A stretch of DNA of 60,306 bases, counting the filler, from Sluysia triapertura (Eukaryota), in the NCBI GenBank assembly GCA_046118255.1. It is 5 parts of 5 records of this genome, joined end to end, with 100 filler letters (N's around TTAATTAATTAA, not from the genome) between each part and the next. Parts side by side here need not be neighbours in the genome. Positions count along the whole stretch, not along the records: positions 12,556 to 24,822 come from JBJNIA010124302.1; positions 24,923 to 36,114 come from JBJNIA010187656.1; positions 36,215 to 47,795 come from JBJNIA010183157.1; positions 47,896 to 60,306 come from JBJNIA010112200.1; 1 more part is not named here. One strand, written 5' to 3'. Below the pieces are notes generated by a model. That model was not told where the DNA came from. It worked only from the letters and a program-made list of their open reading frames with translations, and did not search any database. Shown piece by piece: positions 17,481 through 59,850 of the stretch (positions are counted from its first letter, which is position 1; the number at the start of each line of letters is the position of its first letter). The translations under genes and the position numbers were made by a program.

Positions 17481-17499
17481 GTTTTGATTAAGATTTAAT

Positions 17500-17892
17500 T
17501 TATCTACGTAGACGTTAATTATGGATTAGTTCTAGTTTATTTACATAAGCGTTATTTATGATCTGTTCGATTACTTCATGGATGAATCTTAATCCATTGG
17601 AATTACCATAATTCTCGTTCATTTTATTTATGCATTGCAATAGCTCAGGTGCACGACATACAAATCGAAATTGTGGTAAATAATGTTTATAGATGAATAC
17701 GAAATTCCATTGTAAAATCTTTGTTGTTCATTGTATTTGTGATCAGTATACTAAATTTAGTAGTAGCTAAAAATATCTTTAAGCATTTGATTTACATAAA
17801 TATTTTATAGTTTGTACTAGATGTATATGGCAGAATAAGAATTTGTTACTATAACTTAATACGTTGCAGTAACTTGTAAAGAAATTTTTGAA

Positions 17893-17934
<42 letters not shown>

Positions 17935-20025
17935 CAAATTACTGAGATGGGAATAGATGTAATGAGCTTATTAAAATAATAAAATAATTTATCGATTATG
18001 TCAATTATCAACTAATGTAACATCTTTACCAAAGGTCTTGCATCATTCAATATAGCATGAAATGTTCTAAGCTACTCTAATTTTTCTTCTGGAACTTGGT
18101 GGACAAATAAAAACTTTAGTTTCAATTATGAATATTGTAATTAAGCACATTTTGTACCTTGAAATTAGTTGCTTTTTCTTTGACACTTGATGAAGTTTTG
18201 TGGTGGTATGGTATGATTTACATAAGCTAAAAGTTTTATTTTGACGATACATTGATTTTATACGTTGTAAGGTAAAAAATTCTTTAATCTTTCTATTTAA
18301 ATTTAATTCAACTTTATCATCAATAGGGAAAACAATAAAATTAACAAAGTTTTTATTAGAATTCACAGAAAATTAACATTTTTTTAAAATTCTTTTTTTA
18401 ATAATGTTCTCCCAAGTATGTTTTAATTTCAATCCGTGGAAGATTCTAAAAAAACAAAAGAATATACTTGGGCATCAATATTAATAATAATTTTATAAGT
18501 ACGATTAAATTTAAAGATAACTTTAAAGTAATTTTTGTGGACAATGTGATCTTGAATTACCGCGAAGAGTAACACTGAAGGAGTCAGTCTAATGAGACAG
18601 CAATTGACCAGACTTGTGTCCCTGATTGCAAGTAGTTATCGTCGAGAATTGGGCCGAGGTGTAGAATCGATTAATGAGTAGCATTTGATTAAGTGTACTG
18701 AATGATTGCCAAGTTTGAGTTGATGTTTTGGAATTATTGTTTATATCTGACTTAACCATTTAACCACAATTTTCATCAAAGAGTATGTAACTTGAGAATT
18801 TTCTTCTCCTCTAGAGTCATCATTCCAACATCTGGTTAATTCTTTATTTAATTTCTCTGGACATAACATCGAGTGAGGAGCGAGAATATCGAATGGTTCC
18901 TCAAATTGTTTGTTTCTGCATAACATTCTTGGATATTGACAATTAATTTAGAAGTTATTATTGTGTCTTCATTCACTAAGTAAGCTGTTTTAACTAACAT
19001 TAAAGCTCATTTGAAATCCTCAACTAAACCTCATATTTGATTAATGTCCTTATCTCTCCTAGGACCTGTGGCAGATTGTTCGTAGTCATTATCGTAATTG
19101 GAAATTGTCAATGATGGCTTGAGAAACATAAAATTCGATGCATCGTCATCTACATTGAATTGATAAACAAAAGGATCCTGATTGCATTCGAAGCAAGCAT
19201 ACTATAACTGTGATGCATATCTTTATTCGTTTTGCAGATAACTTTAGTATCTACATTAATGAAATACGAATAGAAATTGTTCATTGCAGTATTGGTAGAA
19301 TGACTATCGTCCGAGTGATGTTTCAAACATATCGAAAGTGGAATCGTTAACTTGAATCGTACATCTTAATGATATTACGCACAAGTTTAGTAAGAATTGT
19401 TCAAGATCATCAAAATACGTTGAATTAGTTTTTGTGAGATATTCCAAAATAAATCTTTGTAACTCATGAGTTAATTTGGATGAATTCTGTAATTCGTTGG
19501 TAACTTCTTTTTCATCGGTTTTATGATTTTCTTCTTCATACAAACTACGCAATCTATAAACATCAGTAATAATAAACAGCAACATTTTCAACACACTAAA
19601 TGAAACACCTCGTGTTAAAGACACTTCAGTTAACTTTTCTTTTATTACTTTAAGCTTTGTAGACAAATTTTTAGCATAATTAATAACAATTAATGAGGAA
19701 AATTCTAAATAGCTTATTTCATTCAGTATAATTTGCAGCCAATTTGATTCATTTATTAATACACTTTTATTCATTCTAAGTTTTCTAACCACTGATCGGT
19801 TTTTTAATTTTATCTATTTACTACTAACTCTTTTTAACAATTTACTGAGCTATTTGTAGGTGATTTTCATTGGCTGCTCAACCAGAAGGATAGATATATG
19901 AAAACAGCCAATGATGGTACAGAAAATTGATTGCTATTGAAACTTTAACCAATATCAATGATGGCAACAAATTACAAACGCGAATTAACAGCGTCACCAT
20001 TGATAGTGGTAGTTACCACTGAATG
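17500..20025 (-). pseudogene. Orphan-cassette family copy A (fragmented ORFs 19304-19792, 18741-18926, 18067-18366) with 5' inverted-repeat module
   Basis: TYKIII..SFVFLESSTD*N*NILG at ~18405-18500 aligns with TYKLII..NFIFSELDAAWMVKRVG of the intact copy; inverted repeats at 19867-19914 and 19948-20010. Confidence 0.7.
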
Positions 20026-20080
20026 CTATTTTTGACGTAAAATAATAGTGATAATTAATAATGATAATAAAAATGGGTGA

Positions 20081-20141
<61 letters not shown>

Positions 20142-22034
20142 TTTTATATTCAACGTGATCTCTCTGTTAATTCTTTTATTTCTTGACATATTTGAAATTC
20201 TAAAAATGGCTGATAAAATATAGATCTAATGTTGAGGGTGCAAGAATGGTTTAGAGGATGGCTTGAATGTTTTCTTTTGTGATGTACGTGGTTGAATATT
20301 AAAGAATTTCGAACTTGAAGTGTTTTAGATTACTTTGCACTTTACGGTATGTTATATTTCTACAGTTATGAAATTTTGAATAGAATGTTTTGGTTGAAGT
20401 TATTGTACGTGAGTGGTTTTGAATGAAGGTGCAATTTTAACGTAACAAAGTAATACGTAAATGTTTTAAATGAATTTTTAAGTGCGATTTAATGGCTTTA
20501 ACTGAAGATACAGTTTGGATGTTGAAAACTTATGACTTGAGTGTTTTGAGATAATATATAGATGTTTTATGTGAATTTTTAAATATGCATTGACGTTTTG
20601 GAACTTGAAAATATATTGAAAAGAGAATAGTTTAGTGGATCTGAAGGAGATAAATTATAGCCCAAGTTTTGGTACATTCTAAAAAGGTAGTTGTGCAATG
20701 TTGACAAATATGATTTTGATTATGTTGATGTAAGATTATGTGTAAGAATGTTTTAATGAGTTTTTAAAATGTGCCTTGTAGATTCTGAAAGTGAATGTGG
20801 TTTTGTGTGATGTTAGAATAAAATTTGTCACAGTTTTACCATGATCTCCCAAATGAATAAAAGCTTTAACAGTATCCAAAGCTCAGCAAATTTGTTCACG
20901 TTAACATTACATTTGTCTGAAGATAGTCTTATGTTGGTCTGATTTGCTGGATTTGTGGCTGCGTGTGGAGGTTTTCTTCGTAATCCGGTAATTTTTTTAG
21001 CTATACGCGCTTCATACGAATCTGTGCATCGTGTATAAGAGAATTAGAAAGAAATAGAAGGAGAAGTGAAAATGAATAAAAAAGAGTTATAAAAGAAAGT
21101 TAGTGAAATTGAAGATGCTTCATGTTGTGGATGGCCTTGCGGCTTTTAATATGTTTTCGATACATTTCGGTCGTTTCTAATATGAATTTAATATACAAAT
21201 TTATACATAAAAGTTTCAGAAGCATAGCCTTTAATTGTTCACCTGGGTACCAGATGTAGATAACAATTGAGAGCTTAAAAGCAAGTTTAGTGTGATAGAT
21301 AGTGTCACATATATCTTTAATTAGAAAATTTGTGTGGATGAACTTACATTCAAGTTCATTCGTTATAAATTTTGAAATCTTAATGCTTAGTATATTGCAT
21401 TGAATTTGAATATAAAAGCTCGCTAATTTTGCGTGTGATATAGGTTCCATTACATTTATTATAATCATAGAGATGAATTTTAAACTTAATTTTAAATTTA
21501 TATGAGATTTATGATCATCATGTTCGTCATAGGTATTGTAATTAGTCACACATACTATCTCAACTTTATCCATGAACTTTATCTTTGACATATGATTAAG
21601 GAGTAGAAAATTAAGATCATTACTTGTTTTTAAAAATTTAAAAGTAAATTTACTAAAATAAAACATATAAACATGTATTCGAATAGGAACTAAAATATTT
21701 TCATTATTTGAAATTTCGCATTCACCTTTGACTCTTTTCGCGATCTAGATTGTGTTTAGTTCTAAAAGAATGAAACTATTGTCAATAATAAATCTATAAA
21801 TAACATAATAGTTAAAATAAAACAAATTTAATGTTACAGAATTACCTTCGGGTAAACATAGCAAGAAGTAATCGACATCCGTTTTGTTTCTTTCGAAATT
21901 TTCCTTATGAACGTTGTAATTAACATTGGATGTTAGATCATACTCTTGATTGCAATCTGATTGATAAAAACCATTGTTTATTTTTATTAATCCTCTAATA
22001 ACATAACAGATACAAGTGTCCATTTCTTTTACCT

Positions 22035-22440
22035 TGGATTCATCATTATTTCGTAAGATAAAGTCAACTGAAACCATTAGTTCTCTCATGTTTGATTGAT
22101 CATCATTTCGTAAAATTGCGTCGCAGGAAATCGTTAGTTTTATGAACTTTACAACATCATGATTCTTAAGAAGGTTTACTTACTTCATTTTTGATTCATC
22201 ACTAACTTGTAAAATTGCGTTACATGAAATTATTAGCTTTATGAACTTTATAACATCATGATTCTTATAAACGTTTACTTGCTTCATTTTTAATTCATCA
22301 CTATTTTGTAAAATTGCGTTACATGGAATCATTAGTTACTTCATTTTTGATTCATCACTATCTTGTAAAATTGCGTTACATGAAATCATTAGCTTTATGA
22401 ATTGTTTCATTTTTGATTCATCACTGTCTTGTAAAATTGC
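22035..22440 (-). repeat. Six coding tandem repeats (AILQDSDESKMK-type) in copy B
   Basis: Units of 22, 19, 33, 33 and 19 codons plus a diverged sixth, all frame-preserving. Confidence 0.9.
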
Positions 22441-22552
22441 AAACTTAATTGTGATTGTATAAAATTGAAAATTTTAATTGTAAATGAAATTGTGGATATT
22501 TTCTAGTTTGTACTTTAGTTATTTTTAGTACAAACTGTTTTATTTTTGTTCG

Positions 22553-22735
22553 CCCAATCAGAGCGCTGATATTTACATTTAGTAATTTAGTTAATTATGC
22601 TCTGATTGGGTCTTGCTAAACAGGTAGTTTACCGATGAAACAGACAGAACTGATGGCTAACCACCATCAAGGCTGACAGCTCAATGTTAACATGAAATGG
22701 GCTGTCAGCATTGGTGGTGGTAGCAACCAGTGTTA
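22553..22735 (-). promoter_or_regulatory. 5' module of copy B: inverted CCAAT-box pair plus long hairpin
   Basis: CCCAATCAGAGC (22553-64) / GCTCTGATTGGG (22599-610); arms 22660-22683 / 22698-22721 are 21/24 complementary. Confidence 0.8.
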
Positions 22736-22924
22736 TCAACAATTTTTAATTTAAATTTAAATTTTTATATTTTTAGGTATCTGGAACNNNNNNNNNNNNN
22801 NNNNNNNNNNNNNNNNNNNNNNNNNNNNNNNNNNNNNNNNNNNNNNNNNNNNNNNNNNNNNNNNNNNNNNNNNNNNNNNNNNNNNNNNNNNNNNNNNNNN
22901 NNNNNNNNNNNNNNNNNNNNNNNN

Positions 22925-23500
22925 CATATAAAGGTTAAGTCAAGTCTTGACGATATGTTTAAAAAATATTTAAATTTACTAAATTTATAAGCATAGATTT
23001 TGTGAAATTGTAAAATTTTTGTGTAAAATTTAGTGGATATTTGCGATTTAAAAAGAGAAGCATTACTAAGACATACTAAAACTACTAGAGTATCCAAACT
23101 TATCTGACAATATTCCGAAATATCCACAAAATTGATAACAAATAATTTATTTTGTCATGAAAAAACAGACGTTATATTTAATAACGAAAATCAAAAAGGT
23201 TTAAATGCATTTTAAACTAATTTAAAATCTCAATAGAAGAGATTATTTGAATCTCTTAATAATATTTGAAACAATTATTAACTGCTCCTAACTGTTAAGA
23301 TCTTTCTGTTAATATTAAAGACTAATATCTAATATAAGTCAAAACTTTTGGAGTTGAGTATGCAGACAGTTTAGATTTCTAATAAGAATAATTATAGAGG
23401 TCAAAATAAGTTTTTGTTAAATAACAGTAGAAAAATTGTTTAAGTTTTTGCCTGTTATTATAAACAGATTTATTTTTAAAACTTCACGTCTCATGTATAA
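22925..23500 (-). pseudogene. Probable orphan-family fragment
   Basis: ORF contains LFKSQI, shared with copy F ORF 39040-39276; similar composition. Confidence 0.4.
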
Positions 23501-23834
23501 TTTCTATAGTAAACAAAAATTAGCCATCAATATAATTAACGTTTAAGTTTTAAAATTAAATTAATTTTAAAAGTTCATATATTTAAAATTATAACCAGTA
23601 ATAATAACAAGTTATAGTTTTGTATTTATTTGTCAATTTTTTTCTGATCATATGAAATCGTCAAAATTAAATATAAAAAGCTAAATGTATCTTAATTCGT
23701 TTTTATTTTTTATTTTTGTCTTTTTATTATTATTGTCACTTTAATTAATGTTTTTTCTAAGTATTATTATTATATTTATAATATATTTTATTTTAATTTT
23801 AAGTAATTTGTGAACAAAACTTGACATTGACGCT

Positions 23835-24563
23835 TTAGACATATGTATTTAAATGTACATTAGATTCATTGTCAATGGACTGGTTGTTAATATCGTTATT
23901 AATTCTTTCTGCTGTGTTGGTATTAAAAGTAACTCTTGGTTTTATAATGTATGGAAGAGTTGTCACAGTATTAAGGTTAGAATGGGTGTTGATAGCTGTA
24001 GATGGTTGCATTGTGTTTGATAAATTTGATATTGTTGTAATTAATGATGAAAGTGTGGAAAATGTCTGATTAGGATATTGGAATTTTAAATTAGAATCGG
24101 CATTTAAACAACAACATGGATCAGAACAGGAAAATGCAAGTGGCATTTGAAAAATATTATTAACAAGAGGTAAAGTAGATGAATTAGGTTCTTTGTAATG
24201 TGCATTGGAATTTTGTGGAGTGGGTAGATTAGAGGTATATGGATCACCAGAAGTTGTTGGAGTATCAAGATGAATAATATTTGCATATTGAGATGAAGAA
24301 GTAGAACTAATTAATTGATATGGGATGCTGTTTACAGACAGAAGCAATTTTGGTGGTGAGAAACCTGGGGATAATACATTTATTTCATGACTGGAAGATG
24401 AGGTACCAGGAGGATTATTAGATTTTATGGGTGTCGATGATAAAAGTACCAAATCAGATTGTTGCTGGGCATAAGGATTGGGTTGAGAGTAGGAAGAAAT
24501 GTATGGACCAACGTTTGACTGAACTTTGGACCAAGGAACGTCTCTTATATTAACTTGAATACT
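23835..24563 (-). CDS. Probable terminal exon of a host gene, Ser/Pro/Asn-rich (~242 codons)
   Basis: TTAACAG acceptor at 24564-24565, phase 0 and in frame with ORF 23835-24452; open to the stop. Confidence 0.6.
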   Translation of the reverse strand, partial: SIQVNIRDVPWSKVQSNVGPYISSYSQPNPYAQQQSDLVLLSSTPIKSNNPPGTSSSSHEINVLSPGFSPPKLLLSVNSIPYQLISSTSSSQYANIIHLDTPTTSGDPYTSNLPTPQNSNAHYKEPNSSTLPLVNNIFQMPLAFSCSDPCCCLNADSNLKFQYPNQTFSTLSSLITTISNLSNTMQPSTAINTHSNLNTVTTLPYIIKPRVTFNTNTAERINNDINNQSIDNESNVHLNTYV

Positions 24564-24569
24564 CTGTTA

Positions 24570-24620
<51 letters not shown>

Positions 24621-24922
24621 TACAAATTTTGTAAGATTGCAAAGTTAAACTAATAACTTAAATAATTACTCATTTATTTTTATATTAAAATGCTAATGGA
24701 AAATAAAAAATATAATTAGTGGTAAATATAAATATTTAATCACATATTACAATAAAATAAAATTAGAAATTAATCGTAGCGCAATAGAATCATAAGAGAC
24801 AATAAAATTTTTATAATACTAANNNNNNNNNNNNNNNNNNNNNNNNNNNNNNNNNNNNNNNNNNNNTTAATTAATTAANNNNNNNNNNNNNNNNNNNNNN
24901 NNNNNNNNNNNNNNNNNNNNNN

Positions 24923-25068
24923 ACCTGTCAGCCTTGATGATGGTCGGCCATCAGTTCTCATTCTTCATAATAGTGGTGACAAACATCATCACCATAAATA
25001 GCTAGTATTTTCTTTTCGCCCAATCAGAGTCAATACAATTTTCATAACTAAGAATACTCTGATTGGGC
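24923..25068 (+). promoter_or_regulatory. 5' module of copy C (truncated by gap)
   Basis: CTGTCAGCCTTGATGATGGTCGGCCATCAGTTCT matches the reverse complement of 22646-22679; perfect 13-bp inverted repeat GCCCAATCAGAGT / ACTCTGATTGGGC. Confidence 0.85.
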
Positions 25069-25191
25069 AGACTAAAAAAAAGGAATAAAATTTTATAATC
25101 ATTATTTTAATAATTTCACCAAGTATACAATTCCAATTAGAAGTTAAAGCAATTCTATATTATCATTAAGAGTCGTCTAAAGTTATTTAAA

Positions 25192-38659: not shown

Positions 38660-39880
38660 TATAAAAATTTGTTAAAATTTAAATATATTTTATTAAAAAC
38701 TTGAAAATAACAATTAAAATTGTAAGAACAAAAAAAGAAATAGTTTAAGACAAAATGTATTGGACGCACAACAATTACAAAACTGCAAAGACACTCAAAA
38801 ATCACAAAAAAATAAAAATACTTCATGAAGTTCAAATTTTGTAATGTCATGGACACGATCTGGATTAGTTTCTGGAACAGGGACAAGTTTCTGTAGTATA
38901 TATTTTCGAAACTGGAACTCAATATGTGAATGAGAGACTTGAGACATTGACATAACAATTTTTAGTAGTGTTTAAACCATTGCAATCCAGCTGTAAACTT
39001 AGAAACACATCATATAATTAGAAAATGGATCATCTGCACTTAAATTGGCACATTTTGAATCAGAATCAACAATTCTGTGTCCAATTCAATTTGACTTTTG
39101 AATAAAAACATCATGACATCTCTATCATCGACTAAGAACTTATCTCGACCCACCTCAAGGTCCATAAATACAATACATTCAATCGTTTTACTTTTATGTA
39201 AACGTGATAAATGCACAGTAAAACAATGTTGTGACAATATTCTAATTAGGGTCATAAATTGATCATAATAAGGCATAAATGAAAAGCTAATAGTAACAGC
39301 ATAAGCTCTATTATAGTTACATTTTGCTCGATTACTAATTTACAGCCACAATTAATCAATTCACTAAATTTTAATTCAAGAACTTGGTAATGCTTTTTTG
39401 CTATTGTCGGTAAATAAATCAGATTTTGAAATGACTTCTAAGAAATTCACAAAAGCAGCATCGTCATAAGCTTGCATTCGGGTATTTTCATCATCCAAAC
39501 TTTACGTGACGCGTGATAAACCTTCACAACATGATGAAATAGCCATTGATTCAGCATGACGTTCATTGACCGTTTACATTTCTCAGCGTATTAGATATTT
39601 TAGTAGTAATAACTTGTAACGCTCATTTACCACGCATCGAACCATATAATATATCTGACGCTACCTCTGCCATAACACTAAGTTCAGATTCGTGTTTATA
39701 AACTTCGGCATCCTGCATTGCCTATAAAAGATCGTCATCTAGTAAAATTTAAATTTTTAATAATTTTTTACTTTCATAACTAACAACACAAATGCTCAGT
39801 ACAATTTCAAGACATTTTGACATTTTCCAAAAAGTGTGAAATTAAAACAAACAAATTTATCGTCATCAAAAACATAGAGA
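38660..39880 (-). pseudogene. Orphan-cassette family copy F
   Basis: IVFMDLEVGR vs FIFSELDAAW; LSLQLDCNGL vs LHLRMECNTL; FENIYY vs YETIYY, in the same order as in copy C. Confidence 0.65.
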
Positions 39881-40224
39881 AATAAAACTATACATTTCTA
39901 ACTATACATGTTTACGCAATATATTAGAATTTTAGGGGTGCTGCTAAGGAGACGAAGAAAGGGATATTAGCAAGAAAGGCTAATAATTAATTACGATTAT
40001 GATTATAATTAATTAAAGGCTATAATAAATTTATAAATAATGAAACCTTCGTATATTAATGGTTTAGTAGTAAGAATTTTGTCAGTTGGGAGAGATATGA
40101 TGATGTTATGAGATAAATGAAATGTTCATGAATGCGTTTGAAGTGAATTTTATTTGTGCTTATGTCTATGTTTATTGATGAAAAGGTTTAAACAACAAAA
40201 TGATGTGCACAATTATGACACTAC

Positions 40225-40400
40225 AGGCAACCAATGTAATTCTTTAAGATAAGGTGTTATATGAGATCTTCTTCCAACTTGGAGAATTAGTCTTGTTGCT
40301 TGATTAATTATTAATTTTTTTTCACTTTTCTATCTGAAATTGAGTACGACAAACTATTGTTAAAATCTATGTTGCTAGTTATCAATGAGTGAACAATAAA
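40225..40400 (-). mobile_element. Internal fragment of the L2/CR1-type LINE
   Basis: Close nucleotide match to 1738-1915. Confidence 0.85.
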
Positions 40401-42623: not shown

Positions 42624-43368
42624 CAGTGTTCGATAATCTACCTCCGGCGAAGGGATTTTTACAAGCTTATGAAGATATTTACCTGGCCAGTGACCGAACG
42701 ATAATATATTTGATAAACAAAAAATTGTTTTAATATTCATTAAAATTCAATACTTAAATTAACCCATGAATTCAAAGATGAAGAAAGTAGATGGCGAGTG
42801 CATAATTTTTCAAGATATTTGGACGTTTGATTATTTTTTTGTCGAGCAAAATGGAAAGCCAACATGTCTTATTTGTCTTGAAAAGGTTGCTGCGAATAAA
42901 GTGGCCAAATATCAGGCGCCGTTACATGACCAACCATTTTGAAAATTTTTAAAAAAATTAAGGATAGATGAAGGAAAATAAGTGAATGTGAAGCGAATAC
43001 CCGTGCAAGCTGTGAAGTGTCAAGACGTATCGATGAAAAGATGAAACCGTTTACGGATGTGAATTTGTTAATAATAGTGGTGGATATTGTTTGCCCAGAA
43101 AAAAGTCACTATTGTCTACCTGGTAGGACTGTTACAAGACGCATTGAATAGATGTAATCAGATGTTGAAAATTGTTTAATGAACACTTTCAGCGAATTGC
43201 TATATTTTTTAATTGCAGTTGATGAGAGTAAAGACTTAAATGACACAGGTCAGTTTTCGTGCGAGGAATGACTTCGAGTTTACATGTTTTTTAAGAATTT
43301 ATTCAGTTAATTCATTTGAAGGTTACAGTTACTGAAGCAGACATCTTTGATGCTGTTCTAACTACATG
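42624..43368 (+). mobile_element. hAT transposon (GTF2IRD2/EPM2AIP1-like transposase), 5' part, decayed
   Basis: KKVDGECIIFQDIWTFDYFFVEQNGKPTCLIC; IAVDESKDLNDTGQ; VTEADIFDAV; starts with a CAGTGTT-type terminus. Confidence 0.9.
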
Positions 43369-43599
43369 ATCTATCATCTCAAGAACCCATACAATTTCAA
43401 TCTGGTGCTCAATTTTCAAATTTGACACTCTTTGAATCCGTTCTGTATTGTTGATTACGCTGCTCTTCAGAAACTCACACTTGTATAAATCTTTAGCTAG
43501 CATTTCAAATTTTCTTGCAACCATTGGTGGAATTACATACCGAAGCTTCAGTGCAATCACATTTGGTTTCCATAAACAGTATGACATCTCTCGCAATTC

Positions 43600-44240
43600 T
43601 TTCACGGATTCAATGCTTATCATTTTCTGCAGTCTCTTAATCAAATCAATATCGCAAGTTTTTAAACCAAATGACCACAATGTTAAAGTAAATGTTTCTA
43701 CGTGATAACCTTTATACTATCCATAAAAGTTTAGACTCCCAATTGTAGGTCAATTTTTCAACACTGACTGGTACAGTTATAAATTGTTATCTGCTAAAAC
43801 TTTCATTTATAATTTTGAGCATTAAATAAACATCACTCCAAGTATGTCTACAATGGCCATTGTTAACATTCCATCCCATTGATAAATTAGCCTTCTTGTT
43901 AGAATAAAGTTTTAAAAATACTGATTTATCTACTTTAACATTTTGGCAATAACTGGACTTAATTATATCAGCATTTAAAATCAATAAATCACTATTCAAG
44001 TGTTGAAATCATTTAAAACTGATTCAATTACATCATTTGATTTGAAGTCTAATTTAATAACTTTACGAGTTAAATCACTTTCAGTATAAGACAGATGACA
44101 ATGATAAACTAAATTTGTAAACACATTAAACATTCAATCCGTTTCAATTGCATCAGTATCACTTCTTAATGCTTTAATCAAACCTTCATTTGTATTTAGT
44201 GCATGACACCATTTAGATAAAGCCAGAGAAACATAATTAA
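43600..44240 (-). pseudogene. FAM151 (DUF2181/menorin-like) pseudogene fragment
   Basis: Ordered motifs WCHALN..LIKALRS..AIETD*, SDLT, IKLDFKS, LNADI, LSMGW, TVPV match FAM151 WxHAxN, KLDFKS, LNADI, LSxGW, TFPV; stops, frameshifts and a deletion. Confidence 0.8.
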
Positions 44241-44549
44241 TCTATATAAATTAATTCTAAATTAATCTAAAATGTTAGAAATTTTAAAATGTTTCAAATA
44301 TCTTTTCGCTGTCAATGAACATAAGTTTATAGCCTCATGTATTAAGTAAATTATCAAAGCAAATATCAGAGTAAATATTGCTAAATAATTTTTGTGAATG
44401 GATATAAAATATATATAACTATATATTATATTGTTAAAATTCTTCGCAAAAAAACGAAAATTAAAACAAAAAGCTTTTTTTAACAAAAACATAAATAGGT
44501 CTTTTCTTTATTTTCTTTATAATTTTCTATTAATTATCAAAAATTTTTC

Positions 44550-44729
44550 TTATGACGCCAACAAATTTAAGTTATCTCGTAACAACTGTAAAATCTAAGT
44601 ACTGTCTTTGTAAGTATTTTCCGGTAATGAGTCTAGTTCAGTTATAGCTTCATCAAGTGCTTTTTTGGCCAATTCACATGCCACAGTAGAATCTTCCATT
44701 ACTTCATAATAAAATACTGAAAAGTTTAA
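44550..44729 (-). pseudogene. 14-3-3 C-terminal pseudogene fragment
   Basis: [58 protein letters not shown] matches the 14-3-3 signature, with an in-frame TAG. Confidence 0.93.
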
Positions 44730-45029
44730 AGACTTAACAAGACTGTCATGAAATTCAACAAAATTACCTATCTATAAAATATAAAAAATTGTATCACAAA
44801 TAAAATACACTAAAAGAATGGTGCTGAAGTGATGATGAAATGACCACAAACGTTACTTAAATGTTAATAAACAGAATATTAATAAAATGTTAGAGGTTTT
44901 GTTATGCGTCTATGTTTTGTTAATGATGAAAGGTGTAATGGTGTAAGGATAACGGATGAACTTTATTTTAGTGTGGTTTTTGTGATGAAGTTTATATGGT
45001 TTCTGATTAGAGTAAGTATAATGCATGTA

Positions 45030-45570
45030 ATCTAAGGGGTTGTACCACCACACACCGGCAATGGCGGGAAATAAAAAAGGCTTTGTTGCACTATTACAGG
45101 AACACAAGGAAAATCTTGGAATTCCACAGAAGATGGTTAACATTCATTGTATTATTATTCAAGAACGTAATGTACACTATTATGAAAGTTGTTAATCTGA
45201 TCTTATCTCGTGGATTAAATCATTGCCAATTTAGGCAATTTTTGGTGGATGCAGAGGCTGAATATGAAGACCTATTTTTCTAATGTTCGCTGACTAAGCA
45301 GAGGTTCAGTAATTGTAATTACCCTTCAAAGTCAATTCAGTGGATGCATCACATTTTCACGATCCTCATTGGCTTGCATCTTTGGCATTTCTTATGGGCA
45401 TTACGAGTCATTTAAATAACTTGAATTTACACATGCAAGGTAAAGCTCACCTTATAAATGAAATGTGGGAATACCAACATGAAAATTATGCAAATTTTCC
45501 ATCCCTTCAAGAATACAAAAAACAAAATTCAGAAATAATTTGTGAATATAATCAAAGATATGAAAATTGA
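45030..45570 (+). mobile_element. hAT transposase, continuation of 42624-43368
   Basis: PAMAGNKKGFVALL; IHCIIIQE; VVNLILSRGLNHCQF; WLASLAFLMGITSHLNNLNLHMQGK. Confidence 0.9.
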
Positions 45571-45574
45571 GTTT

Positions 45575-47397
45575 ATGGTATAAGGTTTCAAACACCATTT
45601 TATAGTGTAAATTTTATAGTACTGATTTATGAACGAATATATTATATGACTTGATTTATTAATTGATTTTATAATAGAAGGTTTATATTTAATCCTTACA
45701 CAAAGAATGTTAAGATATATGATTATAAGTGTGATGAAAGGTAAAGTTGAGGGCGCATTATCACATTCAATAGAACATTAGAAGCTGAATGGAAAATTGA
45801 AAGTATAATAGATGAATTGGATTTATAATAGTGTCCAGCATGTTATTCTCTTTACTCAATGCGTTTCTTAAGATTATCTCAAATTCTTTAATAAAGTGAC
45901 GGTAATTAGTATTGTCACTAATATAATGATTTGTAATTATCAATTCTTTTAATTCTATAATCATAATACACTTGCATCTTATAATTTCGTATTTGGTTTG
46001 ACATAGGAGTTATTTATAGATAATATATTTATATAAGATTTAAATGAACAAAGAATTTTAAAATACATTAAGCTTATATTTAAAAGATTTTTATTAAAAA
46101 CATGAACATTGTAAAAGTCTTCTGATCTGACCGCCCAGCGTTCCATCTTCCAATCTAAAATTGATTTAACTAAAAAATAATGATATAAATAATTAAATTC
46201 ATAACTAACAGAACAACTAAATAATTCTACACTGGAATAAATACTAATGTTAGTCGAAAGGTCGTGAAACAAACTGATCCTATTTATGTTTAATTCCTTG
46301 TTGCCATTATTAGTGTTTGATAAATCTCTATTCTTAGATAAATAAATTTGATATATGTCATCCAAATTAACTTTATGATTATCAGAATTGCATCTATTTT
46401 GATTCAGCATAGTTAGTAATTTTTCTTTGTTTCTGGTTTTGTCTAATTTATTTAAACTTAGTATCATATAGGGATTTCGAGTAATATGAAATGGTTCATC
46501 TCCATCAAGTACCAATAAGTTATATAACGTTCCTTGAATGACAATTATTTTTGAAATTAGCATTTTACTTTGTCAAATAAACTTTACAATCTAATTTTCT
46601 TGATTTGTCTATCAGAATAGAATCTAATTTATCAACATCATTTGTATAAAAATCGTCAGTGTTATTATCTTCGAAGCTTCGAATTGGAGTTCTTGCATTA
46701 TCGCTTAACAAAATGTGTTCGCCTAAATTACATACAATGATATACTTTTTATTATCTCGATTATCCTTTAAGTACTCACTACTAAAAACCATTAAACTAA
46801 ATTTATCAATTGCATTCTCTGAACATTTATAACTACTGTAATTTAACTGATGATAAATTTTACTACCGGACGATTTATTAATTTCACGATTTACTTTATA
46901 AATAGAATGAATAATGTTTTCAAGCATGTTCGATTGATTCGTTAAATTGGAGTGTTCAATTAATTCGTAATTTACATATTCGTCTGTCTTTTCCGTCTCG
47001 TCTAAAAAATTATCTAATATCATTATTCATCTGGATGTGATCATAGTGACTTGTAAACGGTTGAATGATAATGGTCTGGATGCTTTCTCTGGAATTTGTC
47101 TCATTTTGCTGTCTGGAATTGTATATATTGAAATTTTGATTGTCTGCCGAATTTATTTACGTCTAATTTAGTTGTGAGTGATAGAAATTAAATTGTGATT
47201 TTTAGGTAGAAAAATGATTTTCAGACTGCCCAATCAGAGCATTCCATGAATATTAAGAGTTATATACGCTCTGATTGGGTGATAACACAAACTAATTTAT
47301 AAAGTAGATGTGCGACTAATTACCGTCATCGACAATGTCATTTAATTGATAGTTTGAAAGAGTATAATAAGTATCGATGACGGTAGTAACTATTAAC
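45575..47397 (-). pseudogene. Orphan-cassette family copy D (ORFs 46565-47023, 45979-46563, 45767-45964) with 5' module
   Basis: WAVR-x11-KNLL has the same spacing as WMVK-x11-KNIL in copy C; shared TGCGCCCTCAA near the ORF end; inverted repeats at 47229-47279 and 47321-47385. Confidence 0.8.
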
Positions 47398-48379
47398 TTT
47401 TAAAATTAAAAATTAATATATAATTAATAGTAATAATAATAACGACAATAATGATGATAACAATAATAATAACAACGGCAATAACGTTGTTATTATTATT
47501 GATATTAAAAAGAAAATTACATAAAATCTTTGCCGATCTTTTCTTTATCTTATCAATTCTCACATATAAAATGAAATAAAAAGAAAAGAAGCGAATGTTA
47601 TGCTGCGAAGGAACAATCGTAACTAAGTGTATAATGTATCGTTTGTGGTTGTTGCTTCGCAGTATGATAATGAAATCTTTGAAGTTTTGTTAGCTTTGTT
47701 TTTTTACAGATGTAATGATTTAGGTTGTAAGTGAAATGGAGTATGTTAAAATAATTTATTGAAACTTATTAAAGGTTTATAATTTGAAAACAAGANNNNN
47801 NNNNNNNNNNNNNNNNNNNNNNNNNNNNNNNNNNNNNNNTTAATTAATTAANNNNNNNNNNNNNNNNNNNNNNNNNNNNNNNNNNNNNNNNNNNNTGCAT
47901 TTTTAAATCTTGAATAAATCTTAACCCGTATTAAAAGTTTTTACATATGTTTTATTCATTTTCATTTATTATTCTTTTATAGGTTTTTAACTTCGAGTTA
48001 AACTTTTAGAAATTCAAATTAAATTTTATTAAATATAAATTTAATATAATTATTAAGCTCCAAGAATGTTTTTTGATGGTAATTAAATTTTAGCAATGGT
48101 AGCAATCTCAAACAAAGCTTTCAAAAATTTGGTAGAAAAATTATAATTTCAATGGTTATATTGTATTAATTATCATTATTTGAAATTATAATTTAATGTA
48201 AAATATTTAATTCATCGATGAAATAATAATTCAGATCGAAGTCTTGTAAATGCACGTAATTATCGACGAATAGTGCAAGTCACGGATGATGGTAATTTAG
48301 AAAATGGAAATAAGTTATATGTTAGCAGAAATTGTAGAGAAAGTTATTGTAAAACAAGTTTAGACAAAAAGAAATTTTG

Positions 48380-49245: not shown

Positions 49246-49277
<32 letters not shown>

Positions 49278-52500: not shown

Positions 52501-52563
52501 AATTAATGGATTGTTAAAATAATTATCGGGGGTTTTATGAAGTGAACGGTTAACTCAAAAATT

Positions 52564-52900: not shown

Positions 52901-53499
52901 AATAAACAAAATAAATTAGAACTTTCTTTTCGTTTTTGAAGACAACTATCTCTTTTGATAAATGAAAATTCCTAATATAATTTAAAATGATTTAAATCAA
53001 AGTATAACTCCGTAATCGTTCATCTTAATCTATAGGCAGTAAAGGTTTAACTATTGTTCAAATATGAAAATCTAAAAATTTCTAATTCCAAAAATGAGCA
53101 ATACGTGAAAAATGTTTCAGTTAGACATATATTTTGAAAACTTCAAAACCACCGCATTTAATATAATTGCTGGTAGTACTAAAGATACGCTTGAAAATGT
53201 TTACTGATACCTTCATATTGTATTATTAATGATTATGTACTGAGAAAAAGTACAAAGATATGCATGACTAACAATCCATATACCTATGCAAGTTTAAACT
53301 GATTTTAAGAAATAATTCAATTCCATAAGTGATACTTATTGTGCACCACCACTGAATCTAGCCTATTATTGGATGACGCTTATAATTGACACCCTCATTT
53401 AAAGTGTCAAATTCAATATAAAAAATATCTTAAAGATACATACCAAAAACTGTAATATCAAAAAGTATGCGATTATAGAATTGTATCAGTAGAGATATT

Positions 53500-53750
53500 A
53501 AGTTGAATGTTAAGATATCTGACCTCTGTTGTAACCAATTACATCACTAGATGTTTGTCCAGCATTTCTCAATAGGTATTTTTGCTTCATGATGACGCAA
53601 GACCACATATTGCAATAAACAATAGACAATAGATTTAATTAATACAGTAGCTGCAGTCCAGATATTGAACAGATTTGCTCGATGTAGCACTTCTTAGAAT
53701 TTGAAGCTACAGATGACTTAAAATTGACATTGGCTAGATATTTAGGTGCC
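53500..53750 (+). mobile_element. Mariner transposase remnant
   Basis: LLHDDARPHIA resembles mariner LLHDNARPH. Confidence 0.55.
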
Positions 53751-54344
53751 AAAATCAAAATGTCAAAATTATTTTTTAATTCTCATTTTTTTAAAATTTA
53801 AAAATATTTCAATATTCAAAAAAATCTGTATTATAAGAAATTATTTCTTGAAATTTTGAAACTAAATGTAGAATATTTAAATGATGATTTAGCAGCAAAT
53901 ATTTATTAAACAAATAATTAATTACAAAATTAGTTTTAGGAATTTTCAATAATCTTAATTATTTATTAATACCGCTAGTTTTGGTTTCATAATTTCTTGC
54001 ATTTCTGGATGCGATTTCTGGATACAAAATAATTTTTATTGAGAAAAATATTGTGATTTTTCAACTTTTAATAAGCATTTAAAGCAAGCTCCTTTTTGTT
54101 TACTTTTTCTAAATTAAATCAACTTTCATGTATAAAAATATTACATTTTTTCAATTAAGAATAGTTTTATTTGAAACTAAATATTCCTTTCTTCAAAATT
54201 TTATAATCCTTTGAATCCTGAATTCTTTTGCCAAATGTTTTGTTATTACATATTTAACAGTGTAACCAAATAAGCAATGATTACATAACCTATTTTAGCT
54301 ATATATGTGGTCATTAAGGTCCAAAAACGTATTCGTATCGTGTT

Positions 54345-54463
54345 ATGTGGGACTCCCCGTAAAGCGCGATACGTAACTTTCGCGTTATAATAATTATAAC
54401 TGAATACAAAACATAGAACAATAACAGTTCAATAGGAGGTCGCGTTATATGGGTATCCACTGC
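54345..54463. mobile_element. Degenerate Tigger-like MITE (similar at ~49321-49389)
   Basis: GTGGGACTCCCCGTAAAGCGCGA ... TCGCGTTATATGGGTATCCACTG imperfect TIRs. Confidence 0.45.
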
Positions 54464-55943
54464 ATGTGTAACTAATAGGCTGAAGCAAACTCATATATAA
54501 CTGAAAAATGCTCACTAATCCATTAAAGAATGTATCCAGTGTAAATATATAATCAGGTTATCGAAATTTTTCGTTTTTTAATTTTTCTCATTTTAGTAAT
54601 CAAAAATACTCGCAGTTACACAGTAATTACGACACAAGTTTGATAGTAATTTTTGATAGAAAGTTACTGAACACATTGTTTGTGGGAAACGAATTAACAC
54701 ATTCTGCACGTAGCATTGCTAGTGTGCGGGAGCCAACAAAACTCGGATTTTACGAATAAGTGGTTGGTTGTAATTATAATAAATAAATTATCATAAGATA
54801 AAAAACGTCCAAAAAATGCCCCCTTTTCAGCTTAGATTGGGATAAAATAGCCCGCATAGAATGTGCTAATGTGCATCTATTGGGTACCTATCCTCGTTTT
54901 AAAATTAAATATTGAAAATAAACTGCTTATGATAAAAAGGAGCATAATGTTTAAAAAAATCAGGTTAGTGCATAATGTATTTTAAAAATGAATAATTTTA
55001 TGCACCATTAATAATACTATTAATAATTATGGAAAATTATAATAATCATGAATTCCAACATTCTTCACTGAGAAATACTACATGTAACAGAATATTAATT
55101 TTCTACAATCAAAATCGTATCTTTTATCTGAATGATTAAACACGATAAATAACTCTGGGTACAATATTCAGTTGTCTCTGATAAGATAAAATCATTGAAA
55201 AACTAAAAACGAATATTATTAATCATATTAATATAGTATGGTAGTTATAAATCATGTATTTTTAATAAACTCAAAATAAAAAATTGAAATTTTGAAAAAA
55301 ATTACTTAGCACATTTCATATTGTAATGTTATTTTATAAAATTTCATTGATTTTTTAATTATTTTATTTTTTTCGAATAAAATTTAAGATTCATTTTGTA
55401 TAAGTTTAATTTTTAATATCTTTCTCTAATAAAAAATTTACTAAATATATTATGCAATATTTTCCGTTTATGTATCACATGCAATACACATTTTAATTTT
55501 CTGAATTTGATACTTCATCTGATGAAAAGAAAGACTTCTTCAGACAATGCTTTTGAACTTAAAGAAAATATAATAATTTGGAATAAAAAATTTATAATAC
55601 TTAACTAAGAAAGAAAAGCCACATATTGAACAGAAGTACTGTTTTAATACAAAAAATAAAAATGATAGCAATCATTATAATGTTCAAATTAATAGAACTA
55701 AAACAGATGCAAATGAATTATGTGCTCAGAAATTGAAAATTAAAAAATTATTGGTCATACTATCACTGAAGAATAATGTATTAGCTGTTATAACACTATT
55801 TAATAGTTTGTTGAAGGCTATTCAAAATCATGTGCGATATTTACGATTTGAATTATAGTAGTGAATATAATATTCCAAATAAAATTCGTTAAAATGTTCT
55901 TTTTACGATCACCTAAAATACAAAGTATACATAATCTTTGTCT

Positions 55944-56225
55944 TTACGGTAATCCTACGTATAAGTCGCGCTTATCTGAGAATAAAAGTTGCTTTTTTAA
56001 AATCTTTCTGCGACTTATACACGGAATTTTAAACAGAAAAAAAACTTTAGTTTGTGAAAAGCGAAGTTTAACATAGTTTTTAAATAATGATTTAATAGGG
56101 TGACCTTTATAAAGTTAAAAAGAATCATTAAACTGACATATAAATGTATATTTAAATGTTTCCATGGATAAGCCGCGGCTTATCTACTGAAAAAGAACAG
56201 GTGTGGCTTATATGCGGGATTTTAA
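55944..56225. mobile_element. Tc2/pogo-like non-autonomous remnant
   Basis: Repeated TATAAGTCGC / GCGACTTATA / GCGGCTTAT subterminal motifs. Confidence 0.5.
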
Positions 56226-56643
56226 ATATACTTTATATAGTTTAACAGTGTCAATTCAAAAAATTAAAGAATGTAAATTTATAAATTCAAACATTTGCAA
56301 CTCTAATAGAAAAAAAATTGAAAGCATTCACAATATAAAATATTATACCTTAATTAAGATTTAAATTATTTGAGTTTATAATAAACGAATAATTATGATA
56401 TTAATAAGTAAACATTTACAGTTAATTATTGGCACAATTCACAGATTTAAAATAAAATATTGCTTAAGTATTTATTCCACTTTAATCACACTAATAAAAT
56501 ATTATATTTTATTACAACTTAAGTAAGTCATAAAAGTCGAATATTCAAAATCACTTGAACAGACCTTATTTGTTATTTACAAATGGCATAGCTAAGCAAT
56601 AAATTGTTTATGAAAGTTTAAAAACAGATTTTTTGTGTATTAA

Positions 56644-56766
56644 CCTTCCGTCACTAGTTATTTTGTAGTAACATGTTACATGAAAATAGTTTGTATATGG
56701 TTGGATGAAATTTTTTTAAATATTTATACATACTTTTTAAAAGCATGTTTTTTTGGTAGCGGAAGG
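56644..56766. mobile_element. piggyBac-type MITE, 123 bp
   Basis: TTAA-CCTTCCGTCAC ... GTAGCGGAAGG-TTAA. Confidence 0.75.
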
Positions 56767-57550
56767 TTAATGCAACATTGGTCAAGTATAATATGCATAG
56801 TATTCAAAAGCGCGTTTAAAGAGGATTATGAACATTTCTGGCAACAGTAATAATTATCCAAATGCTGAATACTGCATTAGTAATCACTTTTCATTCAACG
56901 TGAAGCATGGATTTGGTGCAATCTTGACACAATTAATAAAAATATAGTTGAACATTCGCCGAAGTCATCTTACCAATTAAAATAATTTTTAATGACACGT
57001 GCAATATATATTCTATTTTGCATTTTGTAATCTTATATTAAGTTCGTAATTCTATGCTTATTTTATAAAATTAAGATCTAGATTATTCATTTATAACAAG
57101 GACTATAGAGATGTGCCTTGTTTAACGAAACAAATAAATAATCTTTTTCAAAAAGGAGATGGATAGGAAAAAAATTCAATATCTATAATTTAAAATACAT
57201 AATTTTAAAAAAATTTCGTTTCAATTTCTTTTTGTACATTCGAAATAGATATTTTTAAAATTAGTTTTCCTAATAGTTTATTGAGCATATTAAAACTAAT
57301 ATTCAAATGTAGTACTATTAAGCAACCACATTGAATTAAAAATTGCACAAAAATAAATTATATGAATTCAATGAATTAGTTTATTTCGGAATTTTGTTAT
57401 AAAGTAGGTTATTACCAAACGGCTTAGCGTTATATTAGCATAAAATTAAATTACAAAAACTCAGTTTCCTTTTTTAGCTTAGAATTAAAATTTGAGTACA
57501 CAAATGATAAATATCCATCCGATCATTATTTTAATTAGAAATATTACTTT

Positions 57551-57987
57551 TTAATCAACATAAACCAAAGCTAACTCATCAATATAATCCAAATTATTGT
57601 TAGAGAAAGACAGCCAACAATTTGTAAGTAACGAATTTTCTTTGAATGAGGTTTGAGTAAAATTACTTTCGAAGAAGTCGCTAGAATCTGGAGATGACTC
57701 TAACGTTTGTGGCACATTATGAGAATTTAAATCCGATTTTACTGATGATATAGTATTAAACATTTTATCAATTTCCATTAATCTATTTTCTAAAGACGGA
57801 TATAGAGGAATATCTGATATGATATTGAAATCGGAAGTGGATAAAACCGGTGGTGGATAACCAGCAATATTGTGATGATGATGTGCTAAAAGACGATTTT
57901 GGTAATTGTACAATGGATTGGAAATTATGTTGATATTTGGTACAAAAAGTTTTTTTGAAAGAACTGGCTTCTGAATATTTGATATAT
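57551..57987 (-). CDS. Probable terminal exon of an unidentified host gene (HHHH, YPPPV, acidic Ser-rich tail)
   Basis: ~145 open codons from an AG at 57988-57989 to the stop; protein-like composition; acceptor is weak. Confidence 0.5.
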
Positions 57988-58929
57988 CTAATTCTGCGTG
58001 AGGATCATGCTATAATTATAAAAAGAATTAAGTTTCGATATTTTATTGATACTTATATATGTATAAAAAGTATAGTATCTCAAAAGTATCACAGCAAAAT
58101 GCGTTTTTATGGTTATAGATGACAAAATCTTGAAATATTTATATGTGAAGAAAAATTTTATATAATGAGCACTGCAAGGTAAACAAAGATATCTTTAAAC
58201 CGTAGATTAAGTAACCATTAAAGTTTGTTTATAATTTTAAAATCAAATAATACAGTCTAATTATCACTGTTCAACTCAATAACACCCATCATTGATTAAT
58301 TAACTTACTCATGCAATTTTCATAAAACTGTTCTTTTAGACATTTAATCCTTTAATTTCTGTTCTTTAGATAAGCTGTTGCTAACGTCATCTTCTAACCT
58401 CATAAATTTGTTTACAATATTAATCTGAATTCATAGTCTGATTATCATTAAAAAATTTATAAACACACAAAGCACAAATTTCCTGCTTTGGGAGTCGATA
58501 AACTTTTGTCTTTATGAGAACCAAAATTTAGATCCTCCATTGTCAAAACAAACTCATTTCTATCATAAGTGAAAAGGGACTTATAATTACCGAGTTTCAA
58601 AAATATACCAAAAGCATGAAGAAGCAAACGAATGCATTTCGAAATTATTTCCAAAATTATTTGCGATTTCTGACTCAATTAATAACTTAAAATATTATCT
58701 ATCAAAGATGGTCTTTCTGAAAGTTTTAATTTAAATCTCAAAATTTGTGGTACGAAATTTGAACTTTTTCTGTCATTTAAATTGCCAAACAACATATATT
58801 TTCTTCCACCTTAACGACTCAATATAAATTGGCAATATCGAATTGGATAAGAATAATGGGCCATTCTATAAAAAGTATTTTTTATAAAAACAGTATTTTT
58901 TACTTAGATAATGAAACTTGATCGATAGC

Positions 58930-59850
58930 TATTTCTGTATGAGTAGGTGTGTTAAAATATTTCAATTATACCAATATTGATATTATTGATATCGATATAC
59001 TTAGAGTTTGAGATAATTTTTATTGTACTATATATAAGTTTATAAGAAAATATTCTATTTGTTTTTAGAAACTTGTTGATGTACATGTGAGATTTTGTTT
59101 GCTTAACACGTTTAATGCCATAGGGGTCACCGGTGATCGGCGAAGCCAAGATTATTATAAACACATACCTCGAGTAAATTTTTAATGCTTTTACTTTTTT
59201 ATATTATTATCGTTACTAAAATTCATACTGAGAAATTCATTTTGGCAAGCCATGTAAAATTAACGTAGCATTCAATATGTTAAATTTAGTTTTACGTTGC
59301 TTTTATTAAAAAGAAGATAAAAATTAACTTTTAAAGACAATTTCGACTTATCGAAGACCTTGTTTGACTTTTAGTGTCTATTGTCAATAATGATCACTAA
59401 AATTTTTATTAAAATTGCAATGCAATTAGATTTTAAACATTTTAACTTAGAATTGCATTATAATTAAATAACTAGTCTTTAATTTCTTTTAAACTTTTTG
59501 TACAATTTGTACACAGTAATTCAAATTCAAATATTATGATAAAAAGGATCAAAATGAATATCTAGATCAATATATTTACACATCAGAATAGATTTCAGAT
59601 ATACAAAGACATAAAACCAGATTTTTGAAGAACTGCACTTGGTTACAATATGAAATCAAACTTTTAGAAAGTAAACAAAGTTTAATGAGAAATATTCGAA
59701 AGCGTAAATTTCCAGTTTGTCTAACAGAATACACAGTTTTTAGACAATACAAACACAAGTATTAAATTAGCTTGCGCGATAAAATAAAGTGAGGATCATC
59801 GCACATACAATTCATACATCTTTGTATATGAAAGAAACTAAAATTAATTG
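58930..59850 (+). pseudogene. Probable orphan-family copy, heavily decayed
   Basis: AAATTGCAATGCAATTAGATTTTAAA (~59411-59437) vs CGAATGGAATGTAATACATTAGATTTTAAG in copy C; G-x8-KHI spacing like G-x8-KNI. Confidence 0.5.

Follow-up and report, generated by a model that had tools for sequence, protein, structure and literature searches.

Setting of the cassettes

The window analysed here, a stretch of 60,306 nucleotides of Sluysia triapertura DNA (assembly GCA_046118255.1, five parts joined end to end), harbours four cassettes, A to D, which belong to a high-copy, unclassified family of elements headed by hairpins. Each cassette starts with a 5' double-hairpin module, followed by an open reading frame (ORF) or the remains of one. 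The DNA is AT-rich and of animal type, with a GC content of 25.5% in the window and 26-29% in the cassettes, and is interrupted by 100-base gaps. An initial annotation, made from the sequence alone, had proposed a mobile family, dispersed and encoding an orphan protein that diverges rapidly, with six segments (A to F) and weaker fragments. For A to D this proposal was supported by the module, by the depth of A and B, by the ratio of nonsynonymous to synonymous substitution rates (dN/dS) of B and C and by the orphan state of C, while a protein family of six members was not. The proposed density of one copy per 6-10 kb has to be replaced by four module-bearing cassettes in the 60.3 kb window. 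Copies were indeed found on both strands among remnants of long interspersed nuclear element (LINE), Tc1-like, hAT-like and R2-like transposons, family names assigned by motif.

The 5' double-hairpin module

A DNA module common to all four cassettes lies at their 5' ends and consists of an outer inverted repeat and then an inner inverted repeat with two CCAAT boxes. The CCAAT box is the binding site of NF-Y. Pairwise alignment of the modules gave z values of 9.0 (A-B), 14.2 (B-C), 14.4 (B-D) and 20.2 (C-D). The exact inner repeat, CCCAATCAGAG...CTCTGATTGGG, has three matches in the window (B, C and D) and none in each of 100 shuffles, and every match sits at a cassette head, immediately 5' of the ORF. 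The inner repeat precedes the start codon by 93 bp in A, 152 bp in C and 206 bp in D. The outer palindrome of B was the top hairpin of 2944 windows scanned. Cassette A has the outer repeat (fold z -2.3; equally stable in 3 of 200 shuffles) and a rearranged inner repeat, the right part of which matches the arm and flank of B, C and D. Cassette C keeps only the right outer arm because the gap at 24823-24922 falls within the hairpin. In the outer stem of A, B and D, 4 of 11 pairs are altered on both sides, which 7 of 500 shuffles reach in a test with three informative rows only and the structure taken from B.

All four modules lie at 5' ends, on the strands that the initial annotation had derived from protein motifs alone. 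This agreement of module position and strand with the motif-based calls lends support of an independent kind to placing A and D in one group with B and C. Pattern and arm-matrix scans found no module at segment E (which begins at a gap), segment F or the weaker fragments. By the DNA module A and D are family members; the membership of E, F and the fragments is unproven. Both resolved outer ends, those of A and D, are 20-22 bp from an (ATT)n array, as are 1.2% of window positions. Gaps lie in or near the modules of B and C.

The inner repeat pattern had no match in IMG/VR. Its two matches in metagenomes (L001:3501-3562 and L002:943-1000) were rejected as coincidence, being GC-rich bacterial intergenic hairpins beside unrelated genes; they resemble REP-type palindromes. 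The single IMG/VR match of the outer arm (L003), a lone 20-mer without tblastx match, was likewise rejected. Rfam, hammerhead included, gave no match. Just outside the D module are two more hairpins, one at 47461-47500 (fold z -6.2) and one at 47581-47680 (fold z -2.7). At 27863-27984, about 1.2 kb beyond the stop of C, an inverted pair of 18 bp (94%) looks like the outer arm, and the B stop and the A module are separated by an equal distance; the pair could mark a 3' end of C or a tandem junction, but does not rise above the null.

ORF C, its homologue B and the orphan protein

ORF C proved real, as had been claimed: this intact, intronless ORF spans 495 amino acids, whereas none of 50 shuffles had a stop-free run above 220. 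The claimed relationship of B to C also held. In tblastn the two share 40% identity over 243 amino acids (E 5e-39), in blastn 67% over 608 nt, and a frameshift-aware score of 349 stands against null maxima of 41.6-49.6 (12 shuffles). The coding frames of C and B hold 0 and 1 stops, the other frames 21-30. Over 202 aligned codons B-C dN/dS is 0.52 (bootstrap 0.35-0.79), and purifying selection acts on the protein. Identity per codon position is flat (0.64, 0.67 and 0.66), and constraint on B and C is therefore moderate.

No relative of this protein was found. Pfam searches with 25, 13 and 7 pieces, from cassettes and elsewhere, gave only sub-threshold matches for the cassette pieces, and PHROGs (9 pieces) gave a best E of 0.003 and nothing for C. 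Neither C (lengths 272-867) nor the A open frame (lengths 92-296) had a relative in a set of 5.8 billion proteins, and C had no match at E 0.001 among 1.84 billion protein representatives. The one match to PDB sequences had an E of 1.3. The ESM Atlas returned no usable match for whole C or residues 1-190, which shows neither novelty nor absence. AlphaFold2 models were uninterpretable, with predicted local distance difference test (pLDDT) values of 29 (C, three-row alignment) and 41 (C residues 1-202 alone). Foldseek on these poor models gave nothing at E 0.001 in PDB and viral models, and VIA-align a best Z of 6.3, within background; both results are uninterpretable. Alignment of B with C and a motif scan revealed no catalytic motif common to both. 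Candidate leads to an Ulp1-like protease, GIY-YIG, HUH and PD-(D/E)xK lacked support and were dropped. For the Ulp1/C48-like lead, in the first 180 amino acids of C, N-terminal pieces had no Pfam match up to E 10, and the fold was not in the best 50 structure rows obtained with a query model of pLDDT 41. The claimed lack of reverse transcriptase, DDE, tyrosine recombinase, HUH and Walker A motifs held in Pfam, and the motif-scan matches HIHLV (17829) and Y*EKY (in E) look like chance. A description of the cassette family was not found in the literature searched, including the accessible parts of PMC6431247 and PMC11410931. A Repbase or Dfam entry as 'unclassified repeat' may exist.

It is unlikely, though worth keeping in mind, that the orphan gene product itself is a mobilising enzyme of a new fold or the product of the single gene of a hairpin-ended multipartite virus segment that has colonised a flatworm genome in hundreds of copies, either of them spread by a one-ended double-hairpin module that would combine a replication origin with a CCAAT promoter of its own. 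If it were, the cassettes would constitute a new class of animal mobile element. As an autonomous element of a new kind, with an orphan protein that recognises and mobilises the hairpin module through a catalytic fold diverged past detection, the family would account for an ORF under purifying selection despite being a high-copy repeat, for the absence of a visible partner in the window and for the joint divergence of module and ORF among A, B/C and D, as expected of a protein and its binding site. However, B and C have no conserved catalytic pattern, B, the most abundant, lacks a counterpart of the first ~150 amino acids of C, and a dN/dS of 0.5 with loss of detectable similarity among A, D and B/C is unlike the slowly evolving cores of known transposases. 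We regard this form as improbable.

The other form, in which a DNA virus that is hairpin-ended or multipartite left endogenised segments, each combining a single gene with a promoter and an origin hairpin common to all, is similarly improbable. Such segments, which we would liken to those of a densovirus, bidnavirus or nanovirus or to the planarian extrachromosomal element PEVE, are suggested by one conserved hairpin module before very different intronless ORFs, by fast protein evolution and by a module at one end only. The initial annotation had also considered a virus-derived origin, for which scans of IMG/VR gave no support: of the pattern-matched stretches 0 of 76 (C), 0 of 11 (A) and 0 of 3 and 0 of 22 (D pieces) were confirmed, which leaves C, A and either D piece without a relative there. 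The absence of inner-repeat matches in IMG/VR, the lone 20-mer matched by the outer arm and the lack of a PHROG match for C also speak against virus segments, and the combination of deleted middles with a depth raised hundreds-fold fits spread within the genome. Sequence searches gave no match to Rep/NS1, polymerase or capsid proteins, and the structure models (pLDDT 29 and 41) were too poor to judge such folds.

Tests of protein homology for the other segments

The initial annotation had regarded A, D, E, F and fragments at 22.9k, 40.8k, 52k and 59k as protein homologues of B and C. Five protein-homology tests were negative for all of them, with a power at very low identity that is unmeasured. 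When the whole window was scanned with a B+C profile, the top score was 44.4, inside the range of maxima from 30 shuffles (40.5-53.4). The best claimed-strand p in a region-specific local scan was 0.04, for E, with p values of 0.01 and 0.02 on wrong strands; E against B+C ranged from 0.04 to 0.13, wrong strands being equal or better. B-C was the sole cassette pair linked by all-against-all comparison of tiles. Glocal and chained alignment against permuted profiles gave claimed-strand z values of at most 1.5, with control regions as good, and against shuffled DNA A reached z 2.3 where a control region reached 2.6. Block enrichment placed 15 of 240 matches on claimed strands, compared to a null mean of 16.5. 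Every pair except B-C was thus no better than shuffles, an outcome that the initial annotation had itself named as telling against its family; a protein family of six members is therefore unsupported. Colinear ungapped blocks of 37 and 28 amino acids occur between D and B/C and are not significant; together with KMVFETLYH of D against KGIYETIYY of C they are suggestive only of homology.

Several of the shared motifs occur where they had been reported. Relative to the mean of 60 shuffles, TYK[LI]II occurs 2 times in the window (0.03), W.[VA][KR].{11}KN[IL]L 2 times (0.0), [LI].[LIM][DEQ]CN.L 3 times (0.13) and [YF]E[TN]IYY 2 times (0.05); these four rare motifs were picked after the fact, and one match of each is C itself. 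The other two are at chance level, DK[IV] with 39 matches against 31 and F[IV]F.E with 5 against 2.7.

Abundance of A and B

Depth was taken from summed Logan contigs of one public run (X1, of unrecorded kind and possibly the source) over 15700-24822 at 80% likeness, and refers to A and B only. X1 was the sole sequencing run found to contain the region, matching 0.60 of the words; no RNA run was listed, which says nothing about expression. In total 4949 contigs matched: 449 at 99% or more, 943 at 95-99%, 1816 at 90-95% and 1741 under 90%. The baseline of 16.5 is the mean of five bins of host exon and flank. A reached 5-62 times this baseline, the B ORF 51-157 times, the B 3' region up to 348 times (depth 4855-5749 within 20275-20884), the B tandem repeats 593 times and the B module 1275 times, with a depth of 21080 in 22410-22714 and of 13.3 beyond the gap. 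The fragment at 22.9k has single-copy depth (13.3). The contrast between A/B and the host exons therefore indicates interspersed repetition and not a local gene cluster: A and B repeat genome-wide, which rules against the tandem cluster that the initial annotation had raised as its own counter-case. The ends of B are deeper than its middle and the 5' end is deepest, a pattern that fits DNA elements with internal deletions rather than retroposons truncated at the 5' end.

A host multigene family that evolves fast, keeps a conserved NF-Y promoter and has spread by duplication, with most copies decayed, would also present paired CCAAT boxes, an ordinary promoter design, together with an intact C and purifying selection. 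Yet depth over the adjacent host exons is that of single copies and rises up to 62-fold in A and 1275-fold in B, non-coding ends are deeper than the ORF, copies stand in both orientations between unrelated host exons, and two-sided stem changes are needless for a promoter; this explanation is a slim prospect.

Coordinates and anatomy of the cassettes

The open frame of A runs from 19813 to 19307 (-), with an ATG at 19774; beyond it stops and frameshifts extend to about 18050, and its TYKII motif lies at 18500. The 3' side of A adjoins the Tc1-like remnant. In B the GC skew is +0.41 on the + strand at 20001-21000, and the 3' region is thus strand-biased. The B ORF has a single in-frame stop, at 21745-21747, and the outer end of the element falls inside the gap at 22788-22924. 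D consists of pieces at 47026-46568 (ATG 47023), 46572-45982, 46009-45770 and 45777-45532, all on the - strand, and its 3' side meets a hAT-like remnant. E and F show a weak DNA match (z 4.3). Coordinates are listed in Table 1.

Table 1 Features of the cassettes and segments, in window coordinates
Feature	Position	Strand	Basis or remark
Cassette A, outer inverted repeat (hairpin 1 of 5' module)	19946..20021	-	aligns with B module, z 9.0
Cassette A, outer inverted repeat, arm positions	20012 and 19946	-	arm scan
Cassette A, inner inverted repeat, ATTGG...CCAAT order variant	19867..19914	-	fold z -2.7
Cassette A, coding remains	17530..19813	-	depth 85-1035 vs baseline 16.5
(ATT)n array, interval between B 3' region and A module	20041..20141		20 bp outside A outer arm
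Cassette B, 3' region, high copy, exact end undefined	20275..21100	-	GC skew and depth
Cassette B, ORF	21103..22179	-	homologous to C-terminal part of C
Cassette B, internal in-frame tandem repeats, 99 and 57 bp	22020..22440	-	repeat scan
Cassette B, inner inverted repeat, two CCAAT boxes	22553..22610	-	fold z -4.5
Cassette B, outer palindrome	22649..22731	-	most stable hairpin of the window, -26.0 kcal/mol
Cassette C, outer palindrome, right arm only	24925..24958	+	91% identity to B, 34 nt, E 2e-7
Cassette C, inner CCAAT inverted repeat	25019..25067	+	fold z -5.9
ORF C, intact, intronless, 495 amino acids	25219..26706	+	ORF call; open run 25141-26706
(GTAATA)n-type array past ORF C	26849..26925	+	repeat scan
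Cassette D, coding remains, four frameshifted pieces	45532..47026	-	reading frames
Cassette D, inner CCAAT inverted repeat	47229..47279	-	fold z -4.3
Cassette D, outer inverted repeat	47320..47392	-	(ATT)n-like array begins 22 bp outside
Segment E, decayed intronless frames, 70-bp tandem repeats, begins at gap	36215..37791	+	membership unproven
Segment F, decayed frames, module not found	38662..39950	-	membership unproven

Element class and comparison with known systems

Terminal inverted repeats were not found on comparison of 5' with reversed 3' ends of B, C, D, E and F (z -0.8 to 1.7); the z of 8.5 for A is due to microsatellite only. No DDE transposase family of Pfam matched any cassette ORF piece. 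Direct terminal repeats (z -1.0 to 0.5) and gag, pol or env domains were also not detected; the ends of B are without direct repeats (z about 0) and are therefore not long terminal repeats (LTRs). The planarian Burro elements, giant LTR retrotransposons, share with the cassettes a likely common host group, accessory ORFs and abundant repeats in the accessible part of their description (PMC6431247), but the cassettes measure 2-2.5 kb and have neither an LTR pair nor such domains.

Retroposition by resident LINE machinery, SINE- or HeT-A-like or as retrocopies, with the module as a promoter or pseudo-LTR, would explain the absence of introns, the (ATT)n end of B (like that of local LINE tails), the strand-biased B 3' region and the head-to-tail order of B and A, and active retroposition is suggested by nearby pieces of Menorin and 14-3-3 that look intronless. 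The 3' bias of LINE-mobilised sequences was not seen: a tail-like (ATT)n is present on B only, and the depth at the B 5' end (1275 times baseline, compared to up to 348 times at the 3' end) is the reverse of 5' truncation. Furthermore, (TAA)n arrays follow A and C, in the opposite sense to the B array, the ends of B are not direct repeats, Rfam gave no match, and CCAAT boxes upstream of a start site would be missing from the RNA. Retroposition is accordingly doubtful, at a low probability.

Replitrons, known from the green lineage and stramenopiles in the accessible text of their description, are also small DNA elements with a terminal hairpin and a protein initially unrecognised by Pfam (PMC10288648). 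Unlike these, the cassettes have no short direct terminal repeats, and no HUH/HUQ motif with YxxK or GYxxK, as in Replitron or CRESS Rep proteins, is common to B and C. Helitron2 elements with a Fanzor/TnpB passenger are, in the parts of the accounts available, like the cassettes hairpin-ended non-autonomous elements bearing a selected passenger gene. ORF C differs from such passengers: it is intronless, lacks the C4 zinc finger and a TnpB/Fanzor Pfam match, and on inspection the signature D...[TS][TS]xx-C4 zinc finger...RD was not seen.

The closest likeness is to Helitron2/Helentron elements, including HINE and DINE-1 (PMC3627910, PMC4067079, PMC7492417, PMC5148889). As far as the accessible text of these papers goes, both have a 5' subterminal inverted repeat that folds into a hairpin and shows compensatory changes, their ends are asymmetric, they contain internal tandem repeats between flanks that are T-rich or made of microsatellite, and they reach very high copy numbers and lie at contig borders. 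Maintenance of the Helitron2 5' hairpin by compensatory changes, non-autonomous Helitron2 elements with a passenger ORF and one-ended transposition all have precedents in the available part of Bao and Jurka (PMC3627910), and internal tandem repeats and T-rich flanks are described, in the parts accessible, for HINE/DINE-1 (PMC4067079, PMC7492417). In the cassettes the 5' inverted repeat with hairpin pairing is present as a stem in A, B and D and as the right arm in C. The cassettes differ in that two serial hairpins stand at one end, the inner one being formed by CCAAT boxes, in a longer loop, in the lack of a detected 3' asymmetric inverted repeat or 3' hairpin (tests in all four cassettes) and in an ORF of roughly 500 amino acids under selection, with no RepHel partner in the window.

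Proposed movement of the elements in trans

Asymmetric ends, the 5' hairpin, tandem repeats, T-rich flanks, copy number and the position at contig breaks therefore lead to the reading that A to D are non-autonomous, Helitron2-like hairpin-ended DNA elements moved in trans, with a fast-evolving passenger gene and a promoter of their own. We give this reading a probability of about 0.5. It was not filed as Helitron2 because the test for a 3' inverted repeat failed and no RepHel was found in the window.

Cassettes A to D would be copied in the manner of Helitron2 by a rolling-circle enzyme from another genomic locus, with the outer inverted repeat as the putative binding and nicking site of the trans-acting transposase. 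T-rich (ATT)n sites would be the preferred insertion targets. The inner CCAAT pair may be a portable NF-Y promoter, carried along by the element, from which the passenger gene would be expressed, with stem or germ cells as a plausible site. NF-Y subunits function in germline and stem-cell maintenance of planarians, according to the accessible part of PMC4909293. The ORF could be an accessory passenger that aids persistence of the element, for example against host silencing; it would be kept open by selection between copies and decay once inserted. Short, internally deleted derivatives that retain the ends would probably outnumber full copies.

A number of results weigh against this reading. 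No significant protein homology links A or D to B/C, and in the module the A-D z of 13.9 is inflated by microsatellite while A-C stays below z 3.5. The depths of up to 1275 times baseline are summed contig depths from one run and hence no copy number, and tandem repeats inflate depth at 22105-22409. No insertion site or empty allele was found among the joints listed, in which skips were at most 366 bp and never spanned a whole cassette. At the 3' side, the best copy of the outer arm scored 9-10 of 12 against nulls of 8-10 in all four cassettes, and an arm-matrix scan gave no match above null at any 3' end; other transposons adjoin A and D on the 3' side, where both may have been truncated. A convincing end of hairpin plus CTRR, as in Helitron1, was not found, the two weak candidates (-4.2 kcal/mol) including none for B or D. 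Neither RepHel nor another partner was detected in Pfam and motif scans, which covered the window only. The outer loop of about 40 bp compares to 3-22 bp in the accessible description of DINE-1, B ends in an (ATT)n run that resembles a local LINE tail, and the flatworm lineage of the host rests on one exon of 47 amino acids (61 vs 58 bits).

If the Helitron2-like reading is true, the family escapes standard annotation, as it has no known domain, no symmetric ends and no complete Helitron2 ends. Paired CCAAT boxes would then be scattered through the genome of a group that needs NF-Y in germ and stem cells, and the elements would show concretely where lineage-specific orphan genes can come from and give access to the unclassified share of flatworm repeats. 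With the exact inner repeat pattern of 22 bases, the family is simple to count and to delimit in the assembly.

Neighbouring remnants and host pieces

The 100-base gaps (12456-12555, 24823-24922, 36115-36214 and 47796-47895) have an identical 12-base filler between N runs and are read as joins of unknown size and orientation; three of the four coincide with a cassette head or lie no more than about 400 bp from one. A single-copy, low-complexity host-like exon of 243 amino acids (23838-24566, -) lies between cassettes B and C, which stand head to head. The last exon of a ZIP9 zinc transporter (34740-35090, -) has its top match in Schmidtea mediterranea (61 bits, next match 58), a weak pointer to a triclad-like flatworm. 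A broken, intronless-looking Menorin/FAM151 piece (43315-44250, -; PF10223, E 1.6e-7 for 43790-44008) and, beside it, a 14-3-3 fragment (44598-44771, -; PF00244, E 1.3e-15) are likely retrocopies; a frame at 43.3-44.2k, considered as a possible cassette copy, was rejected as part of the Menorin piece.

The high-copy remnant at 16615-17500, up to 291 times baseline, has no Pfam match; its peptides resemble a Tc1/mariner transposase. A short end sequence is common to positions near 16750 and 51790. Six 3' pieces of a LINE-like family (1370-1968, 4642-4910, 5406-5921, 32144-32237, 38233-38537 and 40226-40400) share about 72-89% identity, and several of them end in (ATT)n; they are a probable source of many microsatellites of the window. 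The 3' remnant of an R2-like retroposon lies at 10500-11360 (-), with a weak zf-RVT match (E 0.006). Two remnants at 42760-43260 and 45011-45567 (+), without hAT Pfam match, appear hAT-like from their peptide motifs, and the second of these meets the 3' side of D.

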